This document shows, piece by piece, positions 8,745 to 58,544 of a stretch of DNA of 64,000 bases. The position numbers and the translations under genes are program-made. Every line of letters starts with the position of its first letter. Position 1 is the stretch's first letter. The stretch is from positions 46,004,001 to 46,068,000 of the forward strand of contig OX597818.1 in NCBI GenBank assembly GCA_951406725.2, given 5' to 3'. This DNA is from Octopus vulgaris (taxonomy: Eukaryota). Below the pieces are notes generated by a model. The model ran no database searches. It worked only from the letters and a program-made list of their open reading frames with translations, and was not told the origin of the DNA.

Positions 8745-9024
8745 AGCACCATCCGTTCGTGGCCGTTGCCAGCGCCGCCCTGACTGACCTCGTGCCAGTG
8801 GCATGTAAAAAGCACCATCTGATCGTGGCCGTTTGCCAGACTCGTCTGGCACGTAAAAAGCACCCACTACACTCATGGAGTGGTTGGTGTTAGGAAGGGC
8901 ATCCAGCCGTAGAAACATTGCCAGATCAAACTGGGCCTGGTGCAGCCTTCTGGCTTCCCAGACCCCAGTTGAACCGTCCAACCCATTGCTAGCATGGAAA
9001 GCGGACGCTAAACGATGATGATGA
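8745..9024 (+). mobile_element. SINE family C (V-domain-like core, (TGA)n tail)
   Basis: Core gagtggttgg-gttaggaagggcatccagc and tail gctagcatggaaagcggacg..aaacgatgatgatg; copies at 10140-10397, 18254-18870 (-), 19057-19281 and 22500-22788. Confidence 0.8.
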
Positions 9025-25245: not shown

Positions 25246-25508
25246 TAAATTGCTGAAATTTGAATACACTGAAATTTTATAATTGATAATGAAGCAGTTG
25301 ATGCAACAACTCTACAGGCCAACTTGAATAATTAATTGAATTAAATGTCGCTGGAAGAAAAGGGTCTGGTAAATTACTTCTTGTGCACAGACTCATTTCC
25401 ATAGCTTCAGTGCAAGTTCTGTGAACAAAAGTTCATCTCAAGCATGAGAAGATACTACCACTAATAATGGTTTCAAGTTTTGGCACAAGTCCAGCAATTT
25501 GATAGGAG

Positions 25509-26101
25509 TGTAACGAACTTCGTTTGAATATCCTCGTGCACTTTTGGGGTGCACAAAGGCAATCACTAGCCGTTGCTTTAATAATCCAGATTCTCTACCA
25601 GTCAGAAACAACAAGACGCAGACGTAAAAGATATATATACTACTTTATTCTCTAATGTGGTAACAGTAACAATAAGTGGTTATCTGATGTCCTTGGTTCT
25701 GGGCGCGCAAGGCTGAAAGTTAATCGATTGTAATATTTACAATGTTCAGCCGCTAAAAACAGAACGGGTTAAAGATGGAGACGATGTTGGTCTGCAACAA
25801 TTTGGTTAAAGGCCTTTTGGTAAGGTGCTGCTAGAATCAAGTCCAGACGGAGAGAAAATATGCGTGACCGTCGCCTTCAGTCGCTGCTGTCTCAAGTCGT
25901 TGGCTGCTGCTGCTAGCGGTCAAACGTTCTACGACCCCCTTGCCTTAGCTAACTACCACGTAGACAAAAGGGTCGTGCTTCCGGTGGTTCGCGCATGCGC
26001 GAGAGGGCCCTTCCTTTCTGTGCCTTGGTGAAGGCACCAACACTCGCACGCGCGAAATAGAAATGGACGGTGCGCGCGCGCACCGTTATAGGATCACTAC
26101 A
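25509..26101 (-). repeat. 3' LTR (593 bp)
   Basis: Direct repeat of 27649-28264; AATAAA on the minus strand near 25645; preceded by the PPT. Confidence 0.95.
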
Positions 26102-27626
26102 AGGCTCCCCTCCAGTGCGTACGCACGAAGGAAACTTATTGTAGTGACTGCAAAACTCAAGGTGGACACCAGATAACCAAACAGCACACAATATAATAAA
26201 ATGGCAAAATTTATAACATACACAAGAAATTTACTAAAGGAAAAAAGAGAAAAAATACTCAATGAGCAAAAATCAAGAGTGCATGCATGAAAGTGTATAC
26301 ATCACAAAGTATAAACCCTTCCGCTGAAAGGAGCGGAGGGAAAGCAAAACTCACAGTCAATGAACCTAGGCGAAATTAAAATCCAACTTCTCTAAAGGTG
26401 GTTGATCCTGCAAAATAGCAGTTAAATCAATTGCTGCAGGAGAGGAAATGGAATCGACAGATAGATCGCTAGTAACACAAAAGGCAAAAGTGCAAGCATG
26501 CTGGTGTGATGCGCGACACAGATAAGTTTCTCTGTTAATTACGTGACCAACAGGAGTCTAACAGGGAAAAAATTACGCCTATACATGGCGCAGCGCATGT
26601 GAACATCCGACATTCTATGAGTCGGGAAAAGAATTAAGCTAACGCAAACGTGTTGCAAAAAACAAGGCAATACACGTGCGAAGCAAAGGCGCATGAAATG
26701 CAATAGAGCTTGCCAGACCGAAAAACAGCAATGAATATGCCAGTGGTTGAGCGATTATATGCCTCGTTCGTACAGGAACAAAGGTATGGCATGCCGGCGC
26801 GTTATAATGGACAAACAACCCTCTCTATGTATACGTGACCGACCTAGGGTCTATAGAAATGAGGTGTGTCCACAAAAGGCATATTTAGCATGGAAAAAAC
26901 AAGCGAGAAAAGCATGTGTGACGTATGTATGTGAGAGATAGCATTTATGTGTGTGTACGTGTGTGCGACAGAAATACATACAAGGTGAAATGCGAGCAGA
27001 AAAATAAATACAGCGCATAGAAAAAATGTCTCTCATGGCTATCCCAGACAATGGAGTTAATTTACCAGTCTCTAATAGCCTGATGCACAATAGCAGTTCG
27101 TTCTGTAACAGAATGTTGAAATCACAAATGCAGATGCCGGTTGAACACAATGTGTAGCGGTTGTAGCTTCGATGCTGTGACAGGTTAACTGGGTACAGAA
27201 GAAATCTCGTAGATAGTGCTGGGCTGTTAATTCTTGGCGCGCTATGCACGAAACAGCGTGAAAGCCAAAGTTCCGCGAGTTGCTATGTACATCTTGGTCG
27301 ACGGTGTTGAAAGGCGACGGTGGTGGTGGAAGGCGACTGTAGTGGACTTGAGACAACATCGTTCTTAGTGATGATGGCGACGAAGATAACGACGACGTGA
27401 AGTAGAAAGACGACGATGGCGATGACGAAGGTGGAGAAAAGGCATCGTTGATATGATGGCGTTCGTCATCATGGCTGTAGAATAAGAAAGAGCTCCTTCT
27501 ACAACTGTTTGTGGTGGCCGGAAACAAATCGTCGAAAGATGATGACTGCGTAGAGTTAAATCGTGTTCCGACTTCGCAGAAAAACTGGATTTTTTTGTTG
27601 TTAAGTGATCTCTGGTTTTAGACCAG

Positions 27627-27647
27627 AATCACGTCGGGGGTCCACCA
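27627..27647 (-). other. Primer-binding site, tRNA-Trp-like
   Basis: Plus strand reads AATCACGTCGGGGGTCCACCA versus the canonical eukaryotic tRNA-Trp 3' end AATCACGTCGGGGTCACCA (two extra nt), 1 nt from the LTR. Confidence 0.8.
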
Positions 27648-27648
27648 C

Positions 27649-28264
27649 TGTAACGAACTTAGTGTGAGTGAATATATCTTCTCTTGTACTTTCGGGGTAC
27701 AAGAGGCAATCACTAGCCGTTGCTTTAATAATCCAGATTCTCTGCCAGTCAGAAACAACAAGACGCAGACGTAAAAGATATATATACTACTTTATTCTCT
27801 AATGTGGTAACAGTAACAATAAGTGGTTATCTGATGTCCTTGGTTCTGGGCACGCAAGGCTGAAAGTTAATCGATTGTAATATTTACAATGTTCAGCCGC
27901 TAAAAACAGAACGGGTTAAAGATGGCGTCGAACAATGGAGACGATGTTGGTCTGCAACAATTTGGTTAAAGGCCTTTTGGTAAGGTGCTGCTAGAATCAA
28001 GTCCAGACGGAGAGAAAATATGCGTGACCGTCGCCTTCAGTCGCTGCTGTCTCAAGTCGTTGGCTGCTGCTGCTAGCGGTCAAACGTTCTACGACCCCCT
28101 TGCCTTAGCTAACTACCACGTAGACAAAAGGGTCGTGCTTCCGGTGGTTCGCGCATGCGCGAGAGGGCCCTTCCTTTCTGTGCCTTGGTGAAGGCACCAA
28201 CACTCGCACGCGCGAAATAGAAAATGGACGGTGCGCGCGCGCGCACCGTTATAGGATCACTACA
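27649..28264 (-). repeat. 5' LTR (616 bp)
   Basis: Direct repeat of 25509-26101; followed on the minus strand by the PBS. Confidence 0.95.
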
Positions 28265-29570
28265 GGAGTAAGTCAATTACATCGACCCACAGTACTCCAC
28301 CAATATTTATTTTAATGACTGTGAATGGATGAAAGAGAAAGTCGATCTCGGAAGCATTTGAACTCGGGGCGTAAAACTGGAAGATATGTCACTAAGCAAT
28401 TTGTCCGGCATGCCAACAATTCTGTCAACTTGTCGCCTTTACAGCGGCCAAGAATAATTTAAAGGGACGAATAGAATCTCCTTGGAGTCAAAGAAGAATG
28501 AATCAATGAAGCTATATTCTAATGGAAAATCCATACTTTTCAGAGGAGGCAGCACGTGTGGCAAGGCGTAGAATTGAAACTTTACAGTTTTAGTAACTCG
28601 GATTAGACCACACTTAAATCGGGTGACGTGACCAATCAGCTTGCAGAAATACCACCCCATATTATAGAATGTTCTATCATGTTCCAGAGTTCCCGCATAA
28701 AAAGGTGTTATACAAGCAACAACGAAGGCAAGCACAGCGAGAAAGAGACACAAAGATGGCCGAGGGACACAATGCACATGGACACAAACAACAAGTTCTT
28801 AAGAAGACAAAGTTCCTTGGTTGCTGCTCAGTCGTAGGTTACAGGAATCGTCGACTACAAAGAATAGAACATTTTCCCCGTCTCTCACGTGAAGCTATTT
28901 ATTTCTGTTATTAATGCAACTACTTTCTACTTTCTACTTCTGACACGATACGTTACTGGCAATCAACTATGTAATTATACAAAATTATGATATACATCTG
29001 TAAAAATAAATGTCATTTAAACAACGTTGGAGTCGGTTTTATTATGGGACAGCACACAGCGTAACATCGTACCAATACATCATCATCCCACGTAACTTTT
29101 GTCCACACACTTAATTATTCCAAAGACAATCTCCTGCCATAGACTTACATTGTATATAGCTAATCACTTAAAACTGCTTTAAGCATGACACTGATGGTAC
29201 AGAAAACAAGACATACATGTGAGTAACGCAGAAACGTAGAAAACAATATGAAAGAAGTTCTTTTGTCATTAAACTGCAGAGGTAACCTTCCTAAAAATAA
29301 CTACAATACCAAAATCCTTTTGAATGAAGCACGCATATTTGTACGTTCAATTGTTGCCTCTTCTTGTTTTATTTTTGTGTAAGTCGAAAGAATTAGTAGT
29401 TTTGTTCAAACTCTCCAAGCTTCTGAAAGTTTGAGAGTGAGAAAATCAAATGCACGTATCCTGAAGACGGATTTTGTAGTTAATATATACCTTTATTCTG
29501 CAATAATAGCATGCAATTTGTAATAGGAACCAATGAAAATCTCTGTGGCCAGTCTACCAACCTACTAAAA

Positions 29571-57681: not shown

Positions 57682-57755
57682 GGGGAATTAGCTCAGGCGG
57701 TAGAGCGCTCGCTTTTTGTGCGAGAGGTACCGGAGATCGATACCCAAATTCTCCA
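57682..57755 (+). pseudogene. tRNA-Ala-derived gene or pseudogene with anticodon loop TTTTTGT
   Basis: GGGGAATTAGCTCAGGCGGTAGAGCGCTCGC-TTTTTGT-GCGAGAGGTA...ATTCTCCA; intact acceptor stem with G3:U70, intact D and anticodon stems, disrupted T stem. Confidence 0.75.
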
Positions 57756-58544
57756 CTCTGTTGAATCATTTTCTGATTTCTTTTATGCGAAAACTAAACC
57801 TGGGCAATCTTTCATATTTTTTTAACATTTAAAACGTAACTATTACTTTTACGTTTATTTATTGTTGGTAGTGGTGATCGTGATCGTGCCATCTAGAGTC
57901 ATGGGTATTCTGGGTAGTTACCTGAGGAACGCACAGGTCTGGGGAGCCAGTGTTGTGGATACGTTTACAATCCCATTCTCGAAAGGTGTGGGTAGGAAGT
58001 AATGCTACTTATAAGTCGGCCTTGGTTGGCGACAGTGGACGCATTCTTTTGGCTTGAGTTCCTAGTGATAACGACAGTGAATTCTTGGTGGTGACCTTTC
58101 TTTATTGTTTAGAGTGGTGGTGACGACATTTGTTAAGGCGGTGACGACTGTAGTTGTTTGTAGTATGTGTGTGTGTATGGAGAGGGTAACAGGCGATGAC
58201 ACTGATCTTTATCATGTGCTTTTCTTGCTTTTGTTAACTTTTCACTATAGAGATTTTTATGAAAACTCACCGTCTTAGTTGACGAAAGATATTGATGTCA
58301 ATGACCGGCGTACCACAGTTCGGCTTCGAAGGGTAGGGAAGGAAAGTTATGAAACAGTCGATAAGTTTACTAAATGCCTAAATGCTTTTGTATTTATTCC
58401 TGTTTATTTTTATGATATAACTTCATTTGTGAAATATTTCCAAATGTCGGAGTTGAGCAATTTAACATCAAAGACATATCAATTCATTTCGTTTTGGGAT
58501 TTGGTTTGCAAGATTCTTTATATGAGTTCGTGTGTTGACGCATA

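Follow-up and report, generated by a model that had tools for sequence, protein, structure and literature searches.

Differences between the paired LTRs of a non-coding retrotransposon family in Octopus vulgaris are concentrated in the 130 bp at the U5 end

The two long terminal repeats (LTRs) of a non-coding retrotransposon family in Octopus vulgaris often disagreed at their U5 end. At least two differences in the last 60 bp were found in 40 of 85 full-length copies, and the excess of differences ended near position 130, counted from the U5 terminus. Among coding relatives with similar U3 divergence, 1 of 21 copies was discordant (p = 0.0003). The R-U5 parts of the two LTRs were probably templated by two different co-packaged RNAs, with a heteroduplex present at insertion. 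One discordant copy is located in a stretch of 64,000 nucleotides (the window; assembly GCA_951406725.2, contig OX597818.1, positions 46,004,001 to 46,068,000, forward strand).

The window element (25509-28264, minus strand, 2.76 kb) is a non-autonomous LTR retrotransposon (Table 1). Its family had TG...CA LTRs, a target duplication, a primer site, a polypurine tract, and no gag or pol coding. No Pfam match was obtained in the six of six internal frames tested, and no Rfam match over window 25400-28400. The primer site pairs with the 3' end of a genomic tRNA-Trp(CCA) gene at locus L174. Near both ends and at approximately 26299-26460, the internal region was a 77-88% match to the coding relatives. 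The left and right flanks mapped side by side at eight other loci as adjoining pieces of one host repeat, and the window element is therefore one insertion. Contig loose ends ran from its left flank into sequence resembling the right flank. A tRNA-Lys(TTT) was called by ARAGORN at 57682-57756 of the window and has no relation to the element.

Table 1. Positions of the features of the element within the window.
Feature	Position	Strand	Remarks
3' LTR	25509-26101	-	593 bp; from LTR comparison
5' LTR	27649-28264	-	616 bp; from LTR comparison
Target-site duplication GGAG, left copy	25505-25508		adjoins 3' LTR
Target-site duplication GGAG, right copy	28265-28268		adjoins 5' LTR
Non-coding internal region	26102-27648	-	1547 bp
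Polypurine tract	26102-26113	-	also in coding relatives
Primer binding site, tRNA-Trp	27626-27647	-	two bases more than tRNA 3' end
Putative R-U5 of 3' LTR	25509-25631	-	block discordant across the family; putative boundary
Putative R-U5 of 5' LTR	27649-27778	-	from change point and end of the L075 fold-back
AATAAA, candidate polyadenylation signal	25644-25649	-	just upstream of the putative RNA start position; putative function
U5 hairpin, GTGCAC type	25532-25558	-	6-bp core 25536-25554, 7-nt loop; 10 bp including G-U on RNA strand
U5 hairpin, TTGTAC type	27681-27705	-	6-bp core 27684-27702; 9 bp in total

In the window copy, the divergent stretches of 36 and 43 nt (25521-25556 and 27661-27703, after a common 12-bp terminus) and both hairpin cores were located where the preliminary description had placed them. 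Its count of two substitutions (25597 and 25705) and three small indels (13, 1, and 2 bp) elsewhere in the LTRs was reproduced over approximately 545 bp. The statement that the LTRs differ solely in the hairpin was incorrect, as the stretch between terminus and hairpin differs too; the substitution at 25597 falls within the 130-bp block discordant across the family. Overall, seven substitutions separated the two LTRs, one of them past position 135. The window copy is a mosaic of two subfamilies, as had been proposed: both hairpin variants occurred as separate, common, and widespread subfamilies. The mosaic was real, but the unit exchanged was the whole block of approximately 130 bp, putatively R-U5, and not the hairpin, and about half of the copies were affected.

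Family members were sought with an exact leader-plus-primer-site pattern, which had 129 matches in the 2.8-Gb genome, 100 of them listed. The 110 loci examined comprised 30 from an earlier search and 80 of 82 further sites among the matches listed. An LTR pair was present at 94 of the 110 loci and a 4-bp duplication at 86 of these 94; the 16 unpaired and eight duplication-less loci were dropped. Removal of L169 as a duplicate of L168 left 85 copies, and rates were estimated on 79 copies, with six that had more than 15 differences past position 130 excluded. The internal region measured 1433-1596 bp in 93 of the 94 paired copies, and no long frames were found in the 94 internal regions (longest Met-started frame, 140 aa). 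Solo LTRs with 4-bp duplications were common. A further 14 primer sites, in which the spacer was AT or AA, were rejected because they belong to other LTR families.

At least two differences in the last 60 bp were present in 40 of the 86 copies with a 4-bp duplication, and none in 35. Among the 80 copies without wide U3 differences, 36 were discordant compared with 8.6 expected. The 5'/3' difference rate per bp was 0.044 at positions 1-60, 0.018 at 61-130, and 0.007 beyond. When the slippage-prone positions 10-30 were omitted, 18 of 79 copies had at least four differences in the first 130 bp (2.7 expected). Locus L133 carried 22 differences within the first 100 bp and zero past that. The ratio of within-copy to between-copy differences was 0.11-0.44 across all 13 bins to position 130, 0.047 in the next bin, and no higher than 0.04 in all but one of the 13 bins that followed; local rises past 130 lay at a few indels and at a CG-repeat hairpin close to the U3 end. 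This palindrome is located at 26066-26085 and 28228-28249 in the window, and more small 5'/3' differences were seen there family-wide.

The best change point, position 130-132, was displaced from AATAAA by 11-13 bp towards U5. At L075 (1257-1415), a U5-end fragment of approximately 130 nt, which starts at the U5 terminus and stops at position 130, was folded back via a 4-base match; it had TG...CA ends and was fused to a truncated element. By its structure, this single case looks like self-primed minus-strand strong-stop DNA that inserted. Self-primed strong-stop DNA is known in HIV-1 (excerpts of PMC6088434). Judged by the change point and the end of the L075 fragment, the RNA would start at about window 27778, and the block would then be R-U5 with a short R.

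Strong discordance was found in 23 of 79 copies, and 178 of the 217 R-U5 substitutions in them were alleles found in other copies. Six of 85 copies, the window's among them, paired an LTR of the GTGCAC type with one bearing a TTG-type arm, and did so in both directions. The distance between R-U5 partners had a median of 8.5, compared with 26 for random pairs, and pairing was therefore mostly inside subfamilies. For 20 of the 36 discordant copies, at least one of the two alleles lacked a closer relative elsewhere, so some alleles are new mutations or had very close partners. Small cases of discordance may come from slippage. Strong discordance across classes of rising U3 divergence was 4/13, 6/34, 4/18, and 9/14 (p = 0.015), and private substitutions against U3 divergence gave p = 0.025.

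Coding relatives were reached through a primer-site search, in which L189 was found to have the gypsy gene order of reverse transcriptase, RNase H, and integrase. The coding set consisted of L189 and 39 related loci; 23 of these 40 had an LTR pair, and 21 had the duplication and pol. A CHCC motif was present in 22 of 23, a GPY/F motif in 22 of 23, and a 4-bp duplication in 21 of 23, along with a tRNA-Trp primer site. All four of these features, the CHCC motif being one of Gag, are listed for the CsRn1 clade in excerpts of PMC2582038 and PMC3630058. Judged by motifs and gene order, the coding relatives are Ty3/gypsy elements sharing these CsRn1-clade features. The window element is unlike that clade in being non-coding, and its family has a long primer-site form of 18-20 nt on a similar leader, compared with approximately 12 nt in most coding relatives. 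The coding and non-coding families have U5 haplotypes, the hairpin, the polypurine tract, and the primer site in common, with approximately 80% identity in the U5 half of the LTR, and the proteins of the coding relatives presumably mobilise the non-coding element.

Difference rates in the coding relatives were flat along the LTR (0.011, 0.007, and 0.010). Their R-U5 diversity was lower, though not uniform (nearest neighbour 4.5 vs. 7.0; random pairs 19 vs. 24.5), so some mixed pairs are hidden among them. In L084, L146, and L158, the 3' block alone was closest to that of a coding element, whereas the 5' block alone was so in no copy; L084 and L146 differ in U3 as well.

On the minus (RNA) strand, both window hairpins folded better than shuffled sequences (z = -3.11 for the 10-bp and -2.81 for the 9-bp hairpin), compared with -1.26 and -1.50 on the plus strand; the G-U pairs and these z-scores point to the RNA strand. 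Across the 170 LTRs, the third stem pair counted from the loop was U-A in 76 and C-G in 60, and the sixth was U-A in 83, G-C in 53, C-G in 4, and A-U in 2. The two families together had 47 distinct 23-nt haplotypes, and covariation was tested on 41 of them after six with a shifted register had been set aside. Stem cells were paired in 83.5%, compared with 68.0 ± 1.5% in shuffles, and 0 of 500 shuffles were as high; this control ignores kinship, and the clean independent double changes number about four. Some of the double changes stem from a subfamily of approximately 25 LTRs with a mismatched or shifted stem. Structural selection on the hairpin, suggested in the preliminary description, is likely given the covarying stem, but one subfamily (approximately 25 of 170 LTRs) has a weakened stem. 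Palindrome-templated mutation could also have produced the covariation. The likeness to a retroviral U5 stem-loop lies in the covariation on the RNA strand. Variability within the family was highest in the stretch from terminus to hairpin, with 75 distinct forms among 85 5' LTRs. The hairpin is likely a conserved RNA-strand structure that travels within the exchanged block, with a putative job in priming or packaging.

The primer sites deviated from tRNA-Trp in 44 of 86 copies. Their G run was 4, 5, 6, 3, and 11 nt long in 44, 25, 11, 3, and 1 copies, respectively, most copies having been ascertained with a pattern that demands four G. The G run of the hairpin loop was 4 in 72 of 72, which rules out homopolymer error as the origin of the primer-site variants. 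Variant primer sites were found in 26 of 40 discordant and 11 of 35 concordant copies (p = 0.005; range for the association, 0.005-0.02); after stratifying on hairpin type, the odds ratio was 2.3 (p = 0.058). An 18-nt tRNA-Trp match in L189 (approximately 8990-9010) corresponded to 12 nt in the 96%-identical L191 (approximately 1040-1060). This pair, with the long form of the non-coding family, suggests that the tRNA copy is sometimes captured and inherited. Elsewhere in the genome, the tRNA-Trp 3' half had a cluster of 16 matches (G000:C6:58378997-58461520), likely a tRNA-Trp gene array.

In the proposed mechanism, tRNA-Trp would prime on RNA 1, and the resulting minus-strand strong-stop DNA would become the R-U5 of the 3' LTR. 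The minus strand would land on RNA 2, either by the first jump or by a subsequent template switch, and would be extended on it past the primer site to the RNA 5' end. As RNase H would destroy the R-U5 of the primed RNA, the second R-U5 would come from the other RNA. Plus-strand strong-stop DNA would then anneal via R-U5, as in yeast Ty1/Ty3, and the 5' LTR would be inserted as a heteroduplex that spans the primer site as well as R-U5. One strand or the other would then be fixed by repair or replication, leaving LTRs that match or that differ in R-U5 alone. Non-coding RNAs could be trans-packed from many loci, giving frequent mixed pairs, and coding elements would for the most part be packaged with their own kind. 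The scheme predicts that the boundary falls at R-U5, that alleles are shared, that copies divide into concordant and discordant ones, that primer-site variants last, and that the outcome depends on mixed pairs. All five were observed, the primer-site link weakly. Linkage of the 5' R-U5 to U3 and the internal region was also predicted; it was not found, and the raw test leaned in the opposite direction (23-26 vs. 9). Comparing the linkage of 5' and 3' R-U5 gave rank correlations that showed no difference and split case-by-case results. The 5' LTR termini were considered as marks of defective free riders (off-pattern 12 vs. 2), an idea weakened by TGTAAG being the commonest terminus of the coding relatives.

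Lauermann and Boeke, in papers of 1994 and 1997, reportedly described plus-strand transfer through R-U5 in yeast Ty1/Ty3, to go by the titles. A 1998 vector study is likewise said, from its title, to concern an extended minus strand that templates R-U5-mediated transfer, with altered primer sites; this was reportedly a forced laboratory rescue in vectors, whereas here it would be the routine route in a natural invertebrate family. In the standard scheme, as set out in excerpts of PMC6894440 and PMC5668417, a single strong-stop DNA gives rise to both LTRs, which are identical even if the first jump is intermolecular. Intermolecular transfer between co-packaged RNAs, put forward in the preliminary description, remains the best explanation, but the first transfer alone yields identical LTRs (PMC6894440, in part), and a second transfer through R-U5 is therefore required. 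Excerpts of PMC5371799 describe the Ty3 plus strand annealing to R and U5 at the minus-strand 3' end, and these with excerpts of PMC7472051 state that in Ty1/Ty3 the tRNA does not reset the primer site and its copy is not inherited. The octopus family would resemble yeast Ty3/Ty1 in having R-U5 at the minus-strand 3' end, plus-strand annealing there, and lasting variant primer sites, to the extent that those excerpts cover them. It is unlike them in that the experimental accounts excerpted from PMC5371799 make no mention of LTRs differing at insertion, and in that the L189-L191 pair suggests occasional inheritance of the tRNA copy. In this Ty1/Ty3 form the use of two templates would be limited to R-U5, in agreement with the boundary observed near 130 bp, which would correspond to the RNA start. 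Co-packaged members of ONSEN and of Ty1 recombine in pairs, and the junction falls between U3 and R-U5 (excerpts of PMC5668417 and PMC6894440); their mosaics are alike in these respects but end in two identical mosaic LTRs, whereas the LTRs of the octopus copies differ. Family-wide, R-U5-limited LTR discordance was not found in the literature searched, which took in only a minority of subscription articles and none of the primary reports on Ty1 and murine leukemia virus, nor in excerpts of PMC5874298, PMC9744471, and PMC7251063. The mechanism is known, and its family-wide genomic record is apparently new, although a precedent may exist.

Two copied RNAs are not the only possible source of the pattern. 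The LTRs could have been born identical and one of them later converted by the abundant minus-strand strong-stop cDNA, equal to R-U5, of other copies. This would yield the same 130-bp boundary and the shared alleles, would leave the foreign block without a clear side, as observed, and would suit the higher frequency of strong discordance in older copies (9 of 14 vs. 14 of 65). The rise with U3 divergence counts against discordance at birth alone, which predicts no such rise, and it favours either such later conversion or a formerly more diverse RNA pool. Conversion is nevertheless unlikely as the main source: 4 of the 13 youngest copies were strongly discordant already, the foreign blocks reached to within 6 bp of the LTR end in 10 of 23 strongly discordant copies, where homology would stop, almost no discordance occurred in coding relatives of similar age, and conversion does not predict the primer-site link, should that link be real. 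The low count among coding relatives counts for the two-RNA reading.

Differences could instead have been made de novo, R-U5 being copied twice from like RNAs by a reverse transcriptase that errs or slips near the primer. The 30 bp by the terminus, almost unique to each copy (75/85), the variable G run of the primer site beside the constant one of the loop, and the many discordant copies that differ at positions 6-25 only would agree with this, and it may explain small cases. As a general account it is very improbable, since entire hairpin types were swapped in both directions, most differences were shared alleles, and the effect was absent in the coding relatives, the presumed source of the enzyme. 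An assembly chimera or ectopic recombination of two copies has the slightest chance of all: no read or contig of the public runs, all of which are contigs, spanned the window copy or its left junction, but its target duplication is intact, both flanks are from one host repeat, a crossover between loci would not leave U3 untouched in dozens of copies, homologous coding elements of the same assembly are concordant, and the rare 5' terminus variant of L102 and L151 was also present in contigs of one public run.

If two RNAs were copied, LTR-pair dating is affected. Such dating presumes that the LTRs are identical at insertion, and discordant copies would look older than their real age. In the 79 copies, substitution divergence was 0.96% for the whole LTR and 0.66% for U3 alone (1.46-fold). 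The positions of LTR-pair differences would be a cheap genomic test of the mode of second strand transfer and would reveal the RNA start and which RNAs shared a particle; the test could be applied to any genome with full-length elements. A broader reading, held tentatively and at somewhat less than even confidence, is that 5' LTRs in this animal gypsy family routinely enter the genome as R-U5/primer-site heteroduplexes of two parent RNAs and that each discordant copy is a fossil record of both genomes of a particle. Trans-packed non-coding RNAs would pair across loci and sometimes borrow helper strong-stop DNA, coding RNAs would pack like with like, RNAs with damaged primer sites would ride on the priming of their partner, and LTR-pair ages would be inflated by about half.

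Several loci had other irregular structures. Six copies (L063, L084, L110, L130, L140, and L146) had an intact target duplication and large blocks of U3 differences (16-68 events); such wide differences need another event besides R-U5 exchange, either intermolecular plus-strand transfer or conversion. Tandem elements with a common middle LTR and a duplicated primer site with the first U5 bases were seen among L081/L082, L089, L091, and L188, and would fit transfers that went wrong at the primer site. The internal region of L175 was 81% like that of the window element over 1.4 kb and was flanked by an unrelated 418-bp LTR with the same primer tRNA, an apparent LTR swap between families.
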